Positions 76-8,345 of a stretch of DNA of 9,748 bases are shown here, piece after piece. The DNA is from a virus (Duplodnaviria > Heunggongvirae > Uroviricota > Caudoviricetes). Numbering within the stretch: position 1 is the first letter of the stretch; every line of letters begins with the position of its first letter. Made by a program: the position numbers and the translations under genes. Below the pieces are notes generated by a model. The model saw nothing but the letters and a program-made list of their open reading frames with translations, ran no database searches and was not told the DNA's origin. The stretch lies in IMG/VR virus record IMGVR_UViG_2671180603_000017, positions 1-9,748 of that record; one strand, given 5' to 3'.

Positions 76-627
76 TCAACAATGAATTTTGAGTAATTGT
101 TCCACAGTCATATTTTTAATTGCGCCCCGGTTAACAAGAGTCCATCCCTGTTTTTCCAGATAAAACCGGAAAGTCTCCAGGGGACAGACCAGTGCGCCAT
201 CAGGAACGGTTTCGGTGAATTCGACATTGCCGAATTTGTCGAAGTGAACAACCAGAGTGCGACCATCACCCGGAATCATCTTGTCAGCAGGTGGGGTGTT
301 ATTCTGGCGCAGTTCGGCCTCCATGCGGTCGAACTCAGCAATGTATGCCTCTTTGAATGCGGCGGCTTTTTTGCCCGTGAAGCCCATCACCAGGAAAACG
401 AAGCCGTTTTTGGTGATTTGGTACATTGGGAGTTTGCGCCCGATTGAGTCGGTGTATTCGCTCGCTTCAAAATTGAGGGCAGTAAATTTATCTGAGCATT
501 CAATATTTGCGATGGCACGTAACACATTGTCGTGTCGTTTGTGGAAGAACTCTGCAACCGCAACAGACGTAGTGACAGCGCGACCGTTTTCTACGGTTAC
601 ACAAGGGTGAGAAAGGGTAGTAGCCAT
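76..627 (-). CDS. Rha-family phage regulatory (antirepressor-like) protein, module copy 1; 183 aa from ATG 625-627; an in-frame upstream AUG at 718-720 would add 31 aa
   Basis: The track ORF 76..990 carries Rha-type motifs from memory (ENGRAVTTS..AEFF.KRHDNVLR, then YQITKNGFVFLVMGFTGKKAAAFKEAYIAEFDRMEAEL). The ATG at 625-627 is preceded by GGAGG with 8-nt spacing. The track's longer N-terminal extension runs through a promoter, a non-coding RNA and a terminator, so it is unlikely to be coding. Confidence 0.7.
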   Translation of the reverse strand: MATTLSHPCVTVENGRAVTTSVAVAEFFHKRHDNVLRAIANIECSDKFTALNFEASEYTDSIGRKLPMYQITKNGFVFLVMGFTGKKAAAFKEAYIAEFDRMEAELRQNNTPPADKMIPGDGRTLVVHFDKFGNVEFTETVPDGALVCPLETFRFYLEKQGWTLVNRGAIKNMTVEQLLKIHC

Positions 628-660
628 GATGGCAGCCTCCGCGATGAATTTGATTAACTC

Positions 661-690
661 ACCACCGGAGGTAGCAATCTCATGGGTGGT
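661..690 (-). promoter_or_regulatory. Leader hairpin (stem CUCACCACC/GGUGGUGAG) whose loop contains site B (GAUUGCUACC), a same-sense mimic of the small-RNA loop
   Basis: 9-bp stem; the loop sequence is identical to the sRNA loop core and therefore complementary to site A; covaries in copy 2. Confidence 0.45.
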
Positions 691-700
691 GAGACGTACA

Positions 701-714
701 GGGTTGCTACAACC
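701..714 (-). promoter_or_regulatory. Leader target site A (mRNA sense GGUUGUAGCAACCC), complementary to the small-RNA loop; sits just downstream of in-frame GUG/AUG at 723-718
   Basis: Ten base pairs with one bulged nucleotide against sRNA GGG(A)UUGCUAC; covaries with the sRNA loop in copy 2. Confidence 0.5.
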
Positions 715-793
715 GGTCATCACGGAACCCGGCCAGTCTTGCGACTGCCCCGCACGCCCCACCATAATTTGAATGTGGCTGTGCATTACGCAT

Positions 794-816
794 AAAAAAA
801 CCGCCTGAGCGCGGTT
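794..816 (-). terminator. Intrinsic terminator: 6-bp stem AACCGC/GCGGUU, 6-nt loop, U7 tract
   Basis: Hairpin followed by a U-run on the minus strand; the plus strand has no T-run after the stem, so it is unidirectional. The stem is short, so termination may be partial. Confidence 0.45.
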
Positions 817-870
817 ATGCGCCGTGAATGACTTCGGGGTAGCAATCCCGGCACCCGTTTTATGAGGTGC
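794..870 (-). ncRNA. Putative ~77-nt antisense-type small RNA (c4-like by analogy), copy 1; second hairpin CGGG-AUUGCUAC-CCCG
   Basis: Strong promoter immediately upstream, no AUG inside, two hairpins (GCACC/GGUGC and CGGG/CCCG), ending in a stem (AACCGC/GCGGUU) plus U7 terminator. The loop is complementary to leader site 701-714. Confidence 0.5.
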
Positions 871-876
871 AGGTGC

Positions 877-905
877 ACTATAATTCCACCCGTTCTGGTT
901 TTCAA
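877..905 (-). promoter_or_regulatory. Sigma70-type promoter for the small RNA and possibly read-through Rha mRNA: -35 TTGAAA (905-900), 17-bp spacer, -10 TATAGT (882-877)
   Basis: Near-consensus hexamers at optimal spacing, read directly on the minus strand; identical in copy 2. Confidence 0.5.
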
Positions 906-1044
906 TAGCTACATTCAACATTTTCTCTTTCCTTTCATCACCGAAGTGAACTTTGTTGATGCGGTGAATGCGGCTCAGCGCACGCGGCACAGTTAAAAAG
1001 CGATTAGTTCCCCCGTATCGGGTGGTTATGGGTTTCCCTGTATA

Positions 1045-2865: not shown

Positions 2866-4271
<1,406 letters not shown>

Positions 4272-4272
4272 G

Positions 4273-4575
4273 GTTCAGCAGATTTGGCGCAACTGGCAGA
4301 TTGTGGTTCGAGTTCGTAGTCGCTCTGAACTTGCGTTTCTGCTTACAGCGTAGCCTTAGCTCCTTACGAAGACGTGCCAGTCGGTCACGACCAACGATGA
4401 TGCCATTCTCTGCCAGCTCCGTCTGGAGCCGCCGGGTTCCATATGTTTCGCGAGTGCGGATATGTGCCACCTTAATCTCCAGTTTTAGCCGCTCATCACT
4501 TTGTTTTCTGTCTGAGGGTTCATGCTGTACCCAGTTGTAATAACCGCTCCTGGATACACCAAATACCTGACACAT
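4273..4575 (-). pseudogene. IS600-like OrfB N-terminal portion, interrupted at 4272 by the IS911-like terminus
   Basis: Track ORF 4198..4575 matches IS600-like OrfB (MCQVFGVSRSGYYNW...NLPVAPNLLN) and then diverges at the junction. Confidence 0.7.
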
Positions 4576-4610
4576 CGCTTCAATGGGAAATTGTTGTCGC
4601 CATTGTTCGA

Positions 4611-4913
4611 TTAACGCGTATTTTTCAGCGACTCCTGTGCAAAATACGCTGTTGCTTTTTTTAATATATCTCGCTCAAGGCGAGCTTCATTTAACGCCTT
4701 ACGCAGTTGCAGAATTTCAGATTCCAGTTCAGCCACCGTGCGGGAACCAGGAGTACCGAGCCCTTTTCTGGCGGCGGTAACCCATTGTCCTAAAGTGCCT
4801 TCAGGAAGAGATAATCGGGAAGCGCCTTCACTGATCGAAAGTTGATTTTCAGGAACCGTTCTGACAGCTTCGGCTTTGAACTCTTTAGAGTAACGTTGGG
4901 TTTTTCTGCTCAT
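4611..4913 (-). CDS. IS600-like OrfA (transposase N-terminal HTH and leucine-zipper protein, 100 aa)
   Basis: Track ORF MSRKTQRYSKEFKAEAVRTV...ILKKATAYFAQESLKNTR, typical IS3-family OrfA; followed by an overlapping orfB in the -1 frame. Confidence 0.8.
   Translation of the reverse strand: MSRKTQRYSKEFKAEAVRTVPENQLSISEGASRLSLPEGTLGQWVTAARKGLGTPGSRTVAELESEILQLRKALNEARLERDILKKATAYFAQESLKNTR
4655..4662 (-). promoter_or_regulatory. Programmed -1 ribosomal frameshift site (A AAA AAA G) joining orfA to orfB
   Basis: A7G run in the orfA frame (UUA AAA AAA GCA). The orfB frame is open from this point down to 4273 (read codon by codon), as in other IS3-family OrfAB fusions. Confidence 0.6.
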
Positions 4914-5023
4914 TATTAGCTCCTTCTGATGCCATTCTATTTCAGGAAGGAGTGTCCGTTAAACTCAGGCTACCTCAGTGGTATCTTTACTGAAGTTCTC
5001 ACACAACCAGTAAGGAAATGAAT

Positions 5024-5314
5024 ATGCCAACGTATCTCGCCAGAGTAGAACTATATAATGCTGAGCCAGAGGATTACGAAGGGCTTCATAAATATATGCT
5101 CTCACTAGGATTCAGGAGAACGATCCCCCATGGAGATGGTTCGTATAATCAACTCCCGGACGGAACTTATGTTTCCGAAAAGGGCGGTGATATTTATCAA
5201 ATTCGCAGCCAGATATCTGACTATGCAGACCGACTATCCAGGTATCGCGCGTCTGTTTTTGTTTGCGAATTCAGTCAATGCGCATGGTATTTATACCCCG
5301 CCAAGACCCGGTGA
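5024..5314 (+). CDS. Hypothetical protein, 96 aa (track ORF 5018..5314; second ATG favoured)
   Basis: AAGGAA Shine-Dalgarno 7 nt before ATG 5024; no recognisable family. Its 3' end overlaps the convergent gene 5291..5494 by 24 bp, so one of the two calls may be wrong. Confidence 0.35.
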   Translation: MPTYLARVELYNAEPEDYEGLHKYMLSLGFRRTIPHGDGSYNQLPDGTYVSEKGGDIYQIRSQISDYADRLSRYRASVFVCEFSQCAWYLYPAKTR

Positions 5315-5494
5315 ATATCCTGCACGGCCTTCTGCTTTGTAGAAGGCTTCTTCGCTATCATAATCGCCAGATTCCAGCGCTTCTTTAGCCAGCCAGATGC
5401 GTGCCCCAGTGCCTGCATTTGGCTCCAGTTGCTGGAGGCGTTTTGCATCTTCTAGGAGTAGAGCGATAACGTGTTTTAATTCTGTCTCGTTCAT
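5291..5494 (-). CDS. Hypothetical small acidic protein, 67 aa (MNETELKHVIALLLEDAKRL...)
   Basis: ATG 5494-5492 preceded by AGGTGA; start lies 4 nt after the stop of the upstream small gene (compact, possibly coupled). Confidence 0.45.
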   Translation of the reverse strand: MNETELKHVIALLLEDAKRLQQLEPNAGTGARIWLAKEALESGDYDSEEAFYKAEGRAGYSPGLGGV

Positions 5495-5495
5495 T

Positions 5496-5651
5496 TTACT
5501 CACCTGAATGTCTTCCCAACCAACGACGTGCGCCAGCTTCGGTTTTAAACGTTTTGCTTTTGGTATACGTCATGGCGGTGAATGTGCCGTCTTGATTGGG
5601 AAACACGCCACATACCAGAGATTCGTTGTTGCCAAGATCGATAGTATTCAT
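5496..5651 (-). CDS. Hypothetical small protein, 51 aa (MNTIDLGNNESLVCGVFPNQDG...)
   Basis: ATG at 5651-5649 with a G-rich Shine-Dalgarno upstream; first gene downstream of the leftward promoter at 5832-5860. The track ORF's TTG start at 5714 is unlikely. Confidence 0.45.
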   Translation of the reverse strand: MNTIDLGNNESLVCGVFPNQDGTFTAMTYTKSKTFKTEAGARRWLGRHSGE

Positions 5652-5831
5652 GTTGACCCCATTTCCCCTTAACGCCGGGTGGCGGAACGTTTTATCTACT
5701 GCGCTTTGTATCAATCAACAACTGCCGTCATGTTCGTATGCCTCAGGCTGGCTACTTAGCCCTGTTCAGTGACTGGATAACTCGAGGTATTGTCCTGCCG
5801 TTCTCTGGTGGGGCGTTGTTTGGATATGCTT

Positions 5832-5873
5832 ATTAAACACAATTTGTTTTCTTGTGTCAACACGCAACGTGTT
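5832..5873 (-). promoter_or_regulatory. Leftward (PL-like) promoter: -35 TTGACA (5860-5855), 17-bp spacer, -10 TTTAAT (5837-5832); overlapped by operator-like palindromes AACACGCAACGTGTT (5859-5873) and ACACAA-N9-TTGTGT (5837-5857)
   Basis: Hexamers and palindromes read directly; the half-site AACAC/GTGTT recurs in the divergent promoter region at 6434-6448. Confidence 0.45.
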
Positions 5874-5902
5874 TTATGGTGAGTGTCATATGATGATGCT
5901 AC

Positions 5903-5925
5903 AAAAAAGCCCGCTGATAGCGGGC
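5903..5925 (-). terminator. Intrinsic terminator of the repressor gene: stem GCCCGC/GCGGGC, 5-nt loop, U6 tract
   Basis: GC-rich hairpin followed by a U-run on the minus strand, 32 nt downstream of the repressor stop. Confidence 0.6.
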
Positions 5926-5956
5926 TGATTGGCATATTACTGTGATAGCAAGATCA

Positions 5957-6376
5957 TTATTCCGGTGGGGGATTATCTTTAATCCTGCCTCTCAAATATT
6001 TTTCTACATACTCATCGATTTCTTTTAGCCGGACTTCAAATAGCTCAATCATTCGTTGTTGTTCTGAGCCCGGTAGCTGGTTAAACAACTCAAGAAGTTT
6101 TCGTTGGGATTCATTTAACCACAATTCAGAAGATTCCTGTTCTCCAAAGAGGAGCTCAGGAGGAGATATGCCAAGTGCCTTTCCCAATACGACAGCGTCA
6201 TGTACTCCAACATTTCTGCTGCCCGCCTCATAGTTACCTATACGCGATTGCGTCCATCCGCAGATTTCAGCAAGTTTTCCTTGAGATAAACCAAGCTTCT
6301 GCCTGCGCTCTTTAAGACGCATTGCAATTTTGTCATTGAGCCTACTAGCGGCAATTTTTTCGTTTTCTTTTTCCAT
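5957..6376 (-). CDS. Prophage repressor, HTH XRE family (DicA/CI-like), 139 aa
   Basis: HTH motif LGLSQGKLAEICGWTQSRIGNYEAG; a C-terminal segment (QRKLLELFNQLPGSEQQRMIELFE) resembles my recollection of DicA; divergently arranged with a Cro-like gene. Confidence 0.7.
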   Translation of the reverse strand: MEKENEKIAASRLNDKIAMRLKERRQKLGLSQGKLAEICGWTQSRIGNYEAGSRNVGVHDAVVLGKALGISPPELLFGEQESSELWLNESQRKLLELFNQLPGSEQQRMIELFEVRLKEIDEYVEKYLRGRIKDNPPPE

Positions 6377-6387
6377 TGCATCCTTGT

Positions 6388-6448
6388 ATCACGAATCGTG
6401 ATTTACATAAAACACAAAACAGCTTGGCTATATAACACAAGGTGTGTT
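6388..6448. promoter_or_regulatory. Divergent promoter/operator region: palindromes ATCACGA-A-TCGTGAT (6388-6402) and AACACAAGGTGTGTT (6434-6448)
   Basis: Perfect inverted repeats in the 96-bp intergenic region between the repressor and Cro-like genes; GGAGG Shine-Dalgarno at 6462-6466. Confidence 0.5.
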
Positions 6449-6472
6449 TAAAATTGTCATCGGAGGTTTTCA

Positions 6473-6715
6473 ATGAACAAAATTTCAACATATCGAAAAC
6501 AGCTTGGGCTGTCTCAAAGACAACTTGCTGTTCAGTTAGGGTGGATACAAAGCCGACTGGCAAATTACGAAGCAAATTTTCGTACCCCTGGACTAGAGGA
6601 GTGCAGAAAAATTGTTTCTACCCTTAATCGGCTTGGCGCTCATTGTGGACTTGACGATGTATTCCCCCCAGACGGTAAGCATAGCGAAAACAGCATAGGA
6701 GCGGTTGATTCATGA
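6473..6715 (+). CDS. Cro/YdaS-like HTH DNA-binding protein, 80 aa
   Basis: HTH motif LGLSQRQLAVQLGWIQSRLANYEAN, nearly the same recognition helix as the repressor; strong RBS; stop overlaps the next ATG (ATGA). Confidence 0.65.
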   Translation: MNKISTYRKQLGLSQRQLAVQLGWIQSRLANYEANFRTPGLEECRKIVSTLNRLGAHCGLDDVFPPDGKHSENSIGAVDS

Positions 6716-7133
6716 AAATCAGGCATGAGCACATCGAATCAGTGCTGTTGCCCTGGCAGCCGAAAAAGGGCAGGCGTGGGTCGCTAACGCAATTACTGAA
6801 GAATATCTGCGCCAGGGGGGCGGCGAATTGCCCCTTGTACCAGGCAAGGACTGGAACAATCAGCAGAATATCTATCACCGTTGGTTGAAAGGTGAAACGA
6901 AAGCGCAAAGGGAAAAAATTCAGAAACTGATCCCTGCGGTTCTGGCAATTCTTCCGCGTGAGCTGCGTCACCGACTCTGTATCTTCGATACCCTGGAACG
7001 CCGTGCATTACTGGCGGCGCAGGAAGCGTTGAGTACGGCAATTGATGCGCATGATGATGCAGTCCAGGCCGTTTACCGGAAAGCGCATTTCAGCGGCGGC
7101 GGGTCTTCCGACGATTCTGTCATTGTTCATTAA
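6712..7133 (+). pseudogene. ydaT: YdaT-like (Rac prophage) gene with an apparent 1-bp deletion frameshift near 6748-6752
   Basis: ATG 6712 is translationally coupled (ATGA) and encodes MKIRHEHIESVL, then hits a stop at 6886. The rest of the protein (AEKGQAWVANAITEEYLRQGGGELPLVPGKDWNN...SDDSVIVH) is in the -1 shifted frame (track ORF 6828..7133), which has no ATG or GTG start. Confidence 0.55.
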
Positions 7134-7196
7134 GCAAAAGTTTCCATGCTGTTTGTGCTTATTCTAAGCAACCGGGCAGCATCATACGGGGCAATT

Positions 7197-8345
7197 ATGG
7201 CCGCATTACCATACATGCAACTGTACATAGCTGATTACCTGGCTGACACCATGCATTTGTCAGCAGAGGAGCACGGCGCGTATTTGTTGCTGATGTTCAA
7301 TTACTGGCAAACAGGAAAGCCAATACCCAAAAACAGGTTGGCAAAAATTGCCCGTCTGACTAACGAGCGATGGGTTGATGTTGAACCATCCTTGCGGGAG
7401 TTTTTTTGTGATAACGGCGACGAATGGATGCATCTTCGGATTGAGGAAGATCTGGCATCTGTCAGAGAAAAATTAACCAAAAAATCAGCCGCAGGAAAAG
7501 CATCTGTTCAGGCCAGAAGAAGCAGAAAGGAAGCAGATGTTCAAACAAAACAAGAGAGAAATTTAACAGGTGTTCAAACAGATGTTGGAGTGATGTTCGA
7601 ACATGATGCCAACACAAAGGCAACTAATAAAGATACAGATAAAGATCTAAAAACAGATCTAACCCATCCCAAACCCTTCCCTTCCGGAAGGGAGTTTCGG
7701 GATTTTGTGGCTGGAGTGCTTGAGGGGAGATTATCTGGCGGTACTGCAGCGGAATTTTGTAATTCTGCGGTGGTTGCGTTGCAGGCTGCTGGCCTGGATG
7801 TCTGTCGTGAGTATCCGGTGCCAGAGCGTGGTGACGGTTGCGGAGGGCGGATTGATATCGTCGTGACTGACAGGAACGGTGTCCGGTGTGGGAGCGAGCT
7901 TGACCGAAATTCTCCGCGACAGAAATCACTGCTCAAAATCGGTGCTGTTGAAACCGGGATATGTGTCTTGCGGCGCAGTGATATCGCAAGGCACACCGAG
8001 CAGGGAATTCTGGTTATCGGTGGGGCTGTTCGCCAGAAAAAATTTGACCCGTTGTCAGTTGATCTGCCCGACTGGTTGCCAGAAACACTCTGGCATGAGT
8101 GGGTCCAGTTCAGGCAGGCATTGCGAAAACCGATTCGAACGGAGCAGGGCGCTAACGGGGCGATACGGGAACTGGAAAAATTCCGTCAGCAGGGTTTTAC
8201 ACCTGAGCAGGTGATTCGACACAGCATCGCCAATGAATACCAGGGTCTGTTCGCGCCGAAAGGTGTTCGGCCTGAGACGTTGCTCCGACAGGTTAACACC
8301 GTCTCGTTGCCGGACAGTGCGATCCCGCCAGGCTTCAGGGGGTAA
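7197..8345 (+). CDS. YdaU-like phage replication protein (N-terminal DUF1376-type domain, charged linker, C-terminal domain), 382 aa; alternative start 7146
   Basis: Track ORF 7146..8345; the internal ATG 7197 has a G-rich Shine-Dalgarno; N-terminus MAALPYMQLYIADYLADTMHLSAEEHGAYLLLMFNYW; positioned directly upstream of a DnaC-like gene. Confidence 0.6.
   Translation: MAALPYMQLYIADYLADTMHLSAEEHGAYLLLMFNYWQTGKPIPKNRLAKIARLTNERWVDVEPSLREFFCDNGDEWMHLRIEEDLASVREKLTKKSAAGKASVQARRSRKEADVQTKQERNLTGVQTDVGVMFEHDANTKATNKDTDKDLKTDLTHPKPFPSGREFRDFVAGVLEGRLSGGTAAEFCNSAVVALQAAGLDVCREYPVPERGDGCGGRIDIVVTDRNGVRCGSELDRNSPRQKSLLKIGAVETGICVLRRSDIARHTEQGILVIGGAVRQKKFDPLSVDLPDWLPETLWHEWVQFRQALRKPIRTEQGANGAIRELEKFRQQGFTPEQVIRHSIANEYQGLFAPKGVRPETLLRQVNTVSLPDSAIPPGFRG
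7536..7660. other. Putative replication origin inside the YdaU-like gene: three 12-bp iteron-like repeats G(A/G)TGTTC(A/G)AACA at 7536, 7569 and 7592, then an AT-rich segment with two GATC sites (7621-7660)
   Basis: Repeats read directly; they fall in the low-complexity linker coding region, as the lambda origin does within gene O. Confidence 0.35.

Follow-up and report, generated by a model that had tools for sequence, protein, structure and literature searches.

In lambda, cooperatively bound repressor dimers sit at operators with a 23-bp spacing between centres, and Cro prefers OR3. The operator of phage 434 is ACAA-N6-TTGT, a short palindrome with an ACA-type arm. Its repressor contacts bases through Q28, Q29, S30 and Q33. 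In the Qin prophage, a reporter fusion showed that DicA represses dicBp, and three operators each at dicCp and dicBp were deduced from the sequence. Likewise, reporters in the prophage CP-933P show that its leftward promoter, PL933P, is repressed by PaaR2 and by YdaS (PMC8630535). Three inverted-repeat operators have been described in the divergent region of Rac from E. coli K-12 (PMC9638921).

We analysed a stretch of DNA of 9,748 nucleotides, called here the window. Judging from its sequence, we give a probability of about 0.8 to the reading that its central locus serves a Rac-like lambdoid prophage as its immunity switch, with the same operators at PR and PL. The best match of the window is to E. 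coli chromosomes, in a Rac-like lambdoid prophage (99.5% identical over 5250-7200). The annotated neighbours in the matching prophage are DUF1391/YdaF, two HTH proteins, YdaT, YdaU, a DnaC-like ATPase and DUF977. The genes and signals around the switch are the following.

5503-5291, minus strand: 70-aa ORF, second small gene of the candidate PL operon in the window
5651-5499, minus strand: DUF1391/YdaF-like gene (Pfam DUF1391, E = 5.8e-29); with the 70-aa ORF it forms the first genes of the candidate PL operon here
5926-5908, minus strand: intrinsic terminator of the repressor transcript, with an 8-bp stem (6 GC pairs) and a T run, between the repressor stop and OL
5957-6376, minus strand: repressor of 139 aa, with an N-terminal HTH_3 domain (Pfam, E = 4.6e-13) and a DicA-like C-terminal helical region
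6473-6715, plus strand: Cro-like protein of 80 aa, HTH_3 (Pfam), in the YdaS position but not of the YdaS family
6705-6722, at the cro/ydaT junction: inverted repeat TTGATTCATGAAAATCAG, resembling the operator of YdaT (CII analogue), with one mismatch to TTGATTN6AATCAA
6828-7133, directly after cro: YdaT gene (Pfam YdaT_toxin, E = 8e-12)

The prophage is decayed. IS3-family elements and duplicated Rha-like genes break up the left half of the window, ydaT carries a frameshift (a 1-bp deletion near 6750), and the -35 of PR is weakened. The leftward PL operon is truncated in comparison with intact relatives. In an intact relative, it has about a dozen genes and runs on through Rha, YdaE, RecE, Gam, xis and int. 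A terminator scan found zero minus-strand terminators from PL to 5651, on the way to the small genes. The repeat at 6705-6722 is probably a PRE-type control site, an entry point for repressor synthesis. This is by analogy with CP-933P, where the OM site was footprinted at the same location, the cro/ydaT junction (PMC9986795).

The earlier note on this DNA, made from the letters of the sequence, had listed three palindromes (6434-6448, 6388-6402 and 5859-5873). A script returned exactly these coordinates and found all three to be perfect inverted repeats. The inventory was incomplete; it lacked the site 5836-5850 and the half-site 6411-6425. These two sites lie at the 23-bp spacing, so the layout becomes OL1-OL2 and OR3-OR2-OR1. 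The candidate operators are listed below.

5836-5850: OL1, AACACAATTTGTTTT, promoter-proximal in the PL spacer, with 2 bp shared with the -10 and one arm weakened (GTTTT)
5859-5873: OL2, AACACGCAACGTGTT, perfect palindrome (6+3+6) with a 2-bp overlap with the -35 of PL
6388-6402: OR3, ATCACGAATCGTGAT, perfect palindrome (7+1+7) of a TCAC-arm sub-class, with its centre 19 bp upstream of the repressor ATG
6411-6425: OR2 candidate, AACACAAAACAGCTT, with one good and one degenerate arm and a 2-bp overlap with the -35 of PR
6434-6448: OR1, AACACAAGGTGTGTT, perfect palindrome (6+3+6) in the PR spacer, with a 2-bp overlap with the -10

The site centres are at 5843 and 5866 for OL, and at 6395, 6418 and 6441 for OR. 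Neighbours within each cluster are 23 bp apart, and the two clusters are separated by approximately 575-600 bp. Neither cluster holds three full operators. In OR, two sites are perfect and one is half-degenerate; in OL, one is perfect and the other has a weakened arm. We inspected 5882-5896 and 5813-5827, at 23 bp on either side of the OL pair, for a third OL site and found no match.

The full motif AWCACNNNNNGTGWT (AWCAC-N5-GTGWT) has three exact matches in the 9748 bp, at 5859, 6388 and 6434. An arithmetic estimate gives approximately 0.04 expected in 9.7 kb. The sites at 5859 and 6434 also fit the narrower form AACAC-N5-GTGTT exactly, the only two in the window to do so. When one mismatch is allowed, AWCAC-N5-GTGWT gains only 5836-5850 (1.26 expected at ≤1 mismatch). 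All of these matches are confined to the non-coding DNA on either side of the repressor gene. The palindromes are real and far beyond chance. One could still argue that they are compositional features of AT-rich intergenic DNA with no regulatory role, as generic 15-bp inverted repeats with arms of at least 5 bp are fairly common here (20 in the window and 9.6 in shuffles). Against this stand the three exact matches to a motif that specifies 10 bases.

The sites are placed on two candidate promoters.

5832-5860, minus strand: PL, with -35 TTGACA (5860-5855), N17 and -10 TTTAAT (5837-5832)
6424-6454, plus strand: PR, with -35 TTGGCT (6424-6429), N17 and TTTAAA (6447-6452)

Each candidate promoter has an alternative -10 with a 19-nt spacer: TAATAA for PL, and TAAAAT (6449-6454) for PR. 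PL and PR have the same register of operators and promoter. The spacer is filled by the proximal operator, which enters the -10 by 2 bp, and the next operator enters the -35 by 2 bp. At PL, the second overlap is the one that the earlier note had seen between 5859-5873 and the leftward -35. Its view that this promoter lies beyond a repressor terminator also stands, given the terminator at 5926-5908.

An automated consensus scan called neither PL nor PR in the 17-bp register, because TTTAAT and TTTAAA do not have the conserved A at position 2 of the -10. The scan made two other promoter-like calls, both on the plus strand, which we rejected: 5929-5957 would read into the repressor gene from its 3' end, and 6454-6483 overlaps the cro start codon. 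For the promoter of the repressor gene (PRM), the search between OR2 and the repressor ATG gave only poor hexamers and nothing convincing. One of these poor hexamers, GATACA (6391-6386), would start a near-leaderless transcript. The Rfam E-value scan of 5200-6800 gave nothing relevant, only a sub-threshold Trp_leader over the terminator and a chance P10 match. The PL leader (5655-5790) was rejected as a structured RNA; RNAalifold with 7 homologues gave a weak structure and a positive (unfavourable) covariation term.

The 643-bp block 5830-6472 was found in 153 of 5426 complete E. coli genomes. To describe the variation within this type, we aligned 7 E. coli copies, which are 94-99% identical over the block. 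OL2 and OR1 keep the arms AACAC/GTGTT in all 7 copies. The central 5 bp of OL2 differ in each copy, and OR1 shows two different centres (GG/GA). OL1 keeps its left arm AACAC and the G-T-T on its right side around five different centres. There is no change in OR3, its spacer included, or in the one good arm that OR2 has. Between OL1 and OL2, the DNA is variable. Invariant arms with variable centres are the pattern expected when a protein contacts the arms and leaves the centre free. The repressor terminator is also conserved in this alignment.

The hexamers of PL are invariant in the same 7 copies, with variable DNA between them. This bears on another explanation of the leftward sites. The sites at 5836-5873 might bind the repressor but serve mainly as an auxiliary anchor for looping to OR, or be a relic, and control no active leftward promoter. 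The -10 of PL in the 17-bp register lacks the A at position 2, the scan missed the promoter, and the prophage is decayed, with its IS insertions, ydaT frameshift and weakened PR -35. Nevertheless, a perfect TTGACA and its -10 stay constant while the DNA between them varies. The register of -35, -10 and operator recurs at PR and in distant homologues, and intact relatives have about a dozen genes in the leftward operon behind PL. Moreover, PL933P and dicBp, which are analogous to PL, are active promoters under repression. We consider it very unlikely that the leftward sites act on no promoter, and we retain PL as a candidate controlled by OL1 and OL2.

The comparison with Rac of K-12 shows where the block ends. 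Homology extends through ydaF and the PL leader, stops at 5815 and resumes at 6706. The flanks of the 5816-6705 block have 76-96% nucleotide identity. This loss of homology indicates that the immunity region, from OL through the repressor and OR to cro, is replaceable as a single unit, like that of heteroimmune lambdoid phages. In the comparison with a second cassette, of pPE4 type, the replaced block is approximately 5830-6472, and cro lies outside it.

The two regulatory proteins are related to each other. Their HTH motifs (GWTQSRIGNYEA in the repressor and GWIQSRLANYEA in the Cro-like protein) are identical at 9 of 12 positions, and BLASTP aligns the proteins with 45% identity over 42 residues (E = 2e-10). 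So the near-identity of these motifs, remarked on before, was well seen. In a PDB search, the HTH domains of the 434 and P22 repressors match the repressor of the window, with that of 434 aligned to residues 17-82. The alignment puts Q43, S44, R45 and N48 of the repressor at Q28, Q29, S30 and Q33 of 434. The predicted base-contacting residues, Q-S-R..N, are identical in the repressor and the Cro-like protein.

In the C-terminal part, we detected no LexA-type/S24 peptidase cleavage domain in the 139-aa repressor; Pfam gives HTH families only. The NCBIfam profile for DicA (NF007257) aligns residues 15-133 of the repressor with positions 4-131 of its 135 (E = 1.4e-15), at 57.3 bits against a cut-off of 101 bits. 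The repressor is a short DicA-type protein, to judge from this profile match, in a distant relationship with DicA, and not a cleavable CI. The Cro-like protein is homologous to the Cro of phage mEp213. Homology of the repressor to RacR was rejected (E = 2.1 in the comparison), as was homology of the Cro-like protein to YdaS of K-12, since no alignment was obtained.

We then compared homologues with 57-65% repressor identity. They comprise the phages Chris1 (Citrobacter), pAEv1818 (Aeromonas) and pPE4, and chromosomal loci in Citrobacter, Dryocola, Pectobacterium and Enterobacter. The phage pPE4 was deposited as an Actinobacillus phage, and its backbone is E. coli Rac-like. All of these homologues have xxCAC-N5-GTGxx sites centred approximately 66 bp (60-79) and 19 bp (13-31) upstream of the repressor ATG, and many have a middle OR site centred at about -43. 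At a spacing like that of the window, middle OR sites were found in four homologous loci and in mEp213. A site at the OR3 position, 19-20 bp upstream of the ATG in most cases, has a deviant second arm base in all homologues examined. Most homologues also have CAC-N5-GTG sites 60-125 bp past the repressor stop, and a second OL site approximately 23-24 bp from the first is present in most or many of them.

The promoters follow the same plan. The homologous loci have TTGACA or TTGACT as the PL -35 in the same register, and PR of Chris1 is TTGACT-N17-TTTAAT, in the register of the window. In all 6 relatives aligned, the PR -35 is TTGACC, TTGACT or TTGATC; TTGGCT is unique to the window.

The CAC-N5-GTG core is 40-fold denser in the two regulatory regions than in the rest of 9 independent loci (binomial p ~1e-30). 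The outer bases of the arms change together with the recognition helices, in three combinations.

Repressor helix GW(A/T)QSRIGNYE, Cro helix GW(I/R)QSR: arms AACAC
Repressor helix GW(S/A)TASRVGNYE, Cro helix GW(K/G)RSR: arms GACAC (CCAC in OR3)
Repressor helix GWSGSSRIANYE, Cro helix GWIQSR: arms CTCAC / TTCAC

The residue equivalent to Q28 varies across the family together with the outermost arm bases. In Cro, the change from Q to R is paired with a change from A to G at arm position 1, which suggests that Cro reads the same arms. With the motif counts, the enrichment of the core, the invariant arms beside hypervariable spacers, and the covariation of arm bases with helix residues, a chance origin of the palindromes is effectively refuted.

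The best explanation of the locus is a switch in which the DicA-type repressor, most likely as a dimer, would bind the 15-bp A(A/T)CAC-N5-GTG(A/T)T sites. OR1 and the weak OR2 cover the spacer and -10 of PR and the edge of its -35. Binding there would keep the Cro-like gene, ydaT and the replication genes silent. Likewise, OL1 and OL2 on PL would shut off the leftward early operon, which is ydaF-like here and includes Rha, recombination genes, xis and int in intact relatives. OR3 is placed where it could serve autoregulation of the repressor promoter and be the preferred target of the Cro-like protein. We infer the binding to the sites, the order of occupancy, the cooperativity or looping and the activity of the promoters from this arrangement. 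Induction would pass through an antirepressor and not through RecA-mediated cleavage.

At the level of sequence, the lambda-like OR/OL architecture proposed in the earlier note is borne out by the shared consensus, the register, the 23-bp spacing, the conservation, the covariation and the cassette replacement. Its description is amended in some points: OL has two sites and OR has three, with the middle one weak; 6388-6402 belongs to a separate TCAC sub-class; the repressor is of DicA type; and the PL operon is truncated here. Several observations count against the best explanation. OR2 and OL1 have degenerate arms, the -10s of PL and PR have no A at position 2, and PRM was not located. In addition, an identical Cro accompanies a different repressor and different operators in 10 E. 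coli genomes. Finally, YdaS of Rac in K-12, the analogue of Cro, does not repress racR (PMC9638921).

The case of Cro deserves a closer look. The pPE4-type cassette is present in these 10 E. coli genomes. Its repressor is 61% identical to that of the window, and its operators have C/TTCAC arms and include CTCACATATCGTGAG. Nevertheless, its Cro protein is 100% identical to that of the window. The cro gene was found at 163 places in 162 genomes, which correspond to 153 window-type and 10 pPE4-type cassettes. The element that the two operator sets share best is OR3, with its ATCACGA arm. An identical Cro beside two repressors, with differing outer arm bases, means that Cro may not read the full operator. 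It may read only the common CAC-N5-GTG core, or act chiefly at OR3, whose ATCACGA arm both cassettes keep.

It is possible, and we put it forward tentatively, that the specificities of repressor and Cro are partly uncoupled in this family, and that one Cro allele serves two heteroimmune repressor/operator sets. If this is true, the immunity specificity that the repressor determines could evolve or be swapped with Cro unchanged, and the Cro of one prophage could act on a heteroimmune resident prophage. This shared allele is the sole point of the locus that might interest a specialist or repay an experiment.

A rival explanation is that the operators serve the repressor only. The Cro-like protein would then be limited to OR3 alone or to the bare CAC-N5-GTG core, or have another role, and there would be no symmetric CI/Cro competition of lambda type at all sites. 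The identical Cro beside AACAC and C/TTCAC arms, its occurrence in cassettes of both types, the common OR3 and the unrepressed racR of Rac all agree with it. However, Cro and the repressor have the same predicted Q-S-R..N contacts, and the Q-to-R change in Cro accompanies A-to-G at arm position 1 across the family. Furthermore, AACAC and ATCAC arms occur side by side among the operators of mEp213, which may simply mean that position 2 is tolerant, and YdaS of CP-933P represses both PR and PL. We regard operators reserved for the repressor as unlikely.

In practical terms, the analysis yields an operator consensus and a promoter map, both testable, for an immunity type present in approximately 3% of complete E. 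coli genomes. O157:H7, O145:H28 and O111 strains are among the carriers of window-type immunity, and other enterobacteria are hosts to related phages. The map is useful for annotating prophage switches and predicting heteroimmunity; it leaves the general understanding of lambdoid switches unchanged.

Among the known systems, DicA/DicC of Qin shares with the window a short repressor (~135-139 aa) with an HTH_3 N-terminus and a helical C-terminus, in which the Ala-Gly cleavage site is absent. It also shares a divergent Cro-like gene, and operator clusters both between the divergent genes and at a promoter that closely follows the repressor gene (dicCp corresponds to PR and dicBp to PL). Qin is induced through an antirepressor and not through RecA, and the same would be expected of the switch in the window. 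However, the relationship is distant (57 bits against the 101-bit cut-off), the recognition helix differs, and the Oc operator of DicA is TTGTTAGTCATAACTAACAA in place of A(A/T)CAC-N5-GTG(A/T)T. The rightward operon of the window also differs in having a CII analogue of YdaT type.

CP-933P of E. coli O157:H7 is Rac-like and lambdoid, with a divergent repressor (PaaR2) and Cro analogue (YdaS). It has the same operators at OR1-3 and at the remote OL1-3, and the hexamers of PL933P resemble those of its PR; experiments showed that both promoters are repressed. The CII analogue is YdaT, and the cro/ydaT junction holds a TTGATTN6AATCAA site. On the other hand, its operator consensus consists of GTTTAGTAA repeats, its paaA2-parE2 toxin-antitoxin genes are absent from the repressor operon of the window, and the Cro-like protein of the window is HTH_3 and not of the YdaS family.

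The lambdoid phage mEp213 (Aguilavirus) is similar in the DNA-binding parts. Its cI HTH (GWASQSRIGNYES) is ~58% identical, and its Cro (GWNQSRLANYES) is of the same family. Its OR and OL each hold three A(A/T)CAC-N5-GTG(A/T)T operators, spaced 22-24 bp apart, and its OL1 lies between the PL TTGACA and the -10, in the register of the window. A literature search on the mEp213 operators did not find a description of this operator type. The differences are in the rest of the module. The C-terminal domain of the mEp213 cI is of LexA/S24 type, and RefSeq annotates the protein as a LexA family regulator, whereas the C-terminus in the window is of DicA type. mEp213 has a lambda-type N with nutL and a lambda-type CII; the window has YdaT, two clear OL sites and a degenerate OR2.

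In the RacR/YdaS/YdaT system of Rac in K-12, the likeness is in the backbone: ydaF, the PL leader, ydaT, ydaU and ydaV, at 76-96% nucleotide identity. There is no homology in the 5816-6705 region, the two regulatory proteins of the window are not relatives of RacR and YdaS, and the RacR operators are (T/A)TAGGC-n3-GCCTA(T/A). Finally, 434 and P22 also have homologous repressor and Cro HTH domains that read the same operators with different preference. They differ from the window in the C-terminal domain of the repressor and in the site, which has 15 bp with a 5-bp centre here and 14 bp there.

The overall design of the locus is already known, as in lambda, Qin DicA/DicC and CP-933P. Its own features are the operator sequence and the mix of modules, in which a repressor of DicA type is joined by YdaT and by a Cro of 434 style, with homology to the repressor HTH.

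The Cro-like protein is shared, with 100% identity, by two different immunity cassettes: that of the window, where its gene lies at 6473-6715, and that of the pPE4 phage (L004), where it lies at 2176-2418. In the pPE4 cassette, this protein is accompanied by a repressor 61% identical to that of the window and by operators with C/TTCAC arms. The cro gene occurs at 163 places in E. coli, the sum of both cassette types (153 + 10). The pPE4 sequence was deposited as 'Actinobacillus phage vB_Apl-pPE4' (PP818812.1). In the early region, it matches Rac-like prophage DNA of E. coli at about 95% identity; 10 E. coli genomes contain its immunity cassette at 97-99.8% identity. The assignment of Actinobacillus as its host looks doubtful.

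The candidate rightward promoter PR has TTGGCT as its -35 element (window 6427), and all six aligned relatives present TTGACT, TTGACC or TTGATC. TTGGCT is likely a down-mutation confined to the window copy. Citrobacter-type relatives carry an additional CAC-N5-GTG-like site (L003 2396-2410; L006 1896-1910; also L005, L008 and L010). One example is AACACTAGATGTGAG. The site is located downstream of the PR -10 and ahead of the start of cro, at a distance of about 26 bp from OR1, the predicted operator in the PR spacer. This site is missing in the window.

On the leftward side, we distinguished the following features.

Window 5655-5790 (-): untranslated leader, from the candidate leftward promoter PL to the first gene, conserved at the nucleotide level; counterparts at L002 1960-2095, L003 3030-3160 and L005 3035-3175, also in L006, L008 and L012.
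Window 5018-5314 (+): 98-aa ORF, with a sub-threshold match to the profile of YmfI family phage proteins.
Window 76-990, 1564-2451, 1088-1567, 2866-3966, 3571-4263 and 4198-4913: Rha-family/KilAC-like genes and IS3-family fragments together.

Besides the window and Rac of K-12, the conservation of the leader extends to distant phages of Citrobacter and Aeromonas. The conserved elements include AGTAGC, GCATACGAA, CGCAGCAG and a hairpin, GTTCCGCCA..GGCG, ahead of the ribosome-binding site. An Rfam scan of 5200-6800 gave no match to the leader, and RNAalifold on seven homologues found no convincing covariation for a structured RNA.

The YmfI-like ORF is convergent with the end of the PL-proximal genes (overlap 5291-5314). 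The two Rha-family/KilAC-like regulator genes are near-identical and possibly encode antirepressors. Nested IS3-family transposase fragments lie between and after them, and one transposase sequence among these is present in both orientations. This duplication and these fragments indicate a rearranged and truncated leftward early operon.

Compared with two E. coli relatives, ydaT (6712-7133) has a 1-bp deletion at about 6750. It breaks the gene into two ORFs, at 6712-6888 and at 6828-7133, which makes ydaT, the gene of the CII analogue, a pseudogene in the window copy. At the cro/ydaT junction, a predicted YdaT site (6705-6722, TTGATTCATGAAAATCAG) has one mismatch to the operator TTGATTN6AATCAA. 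The corresponding junction of CP-933P, an E. coli O157:H7 prophage, holds the footprinted OM/PRE site (PMC9986795).
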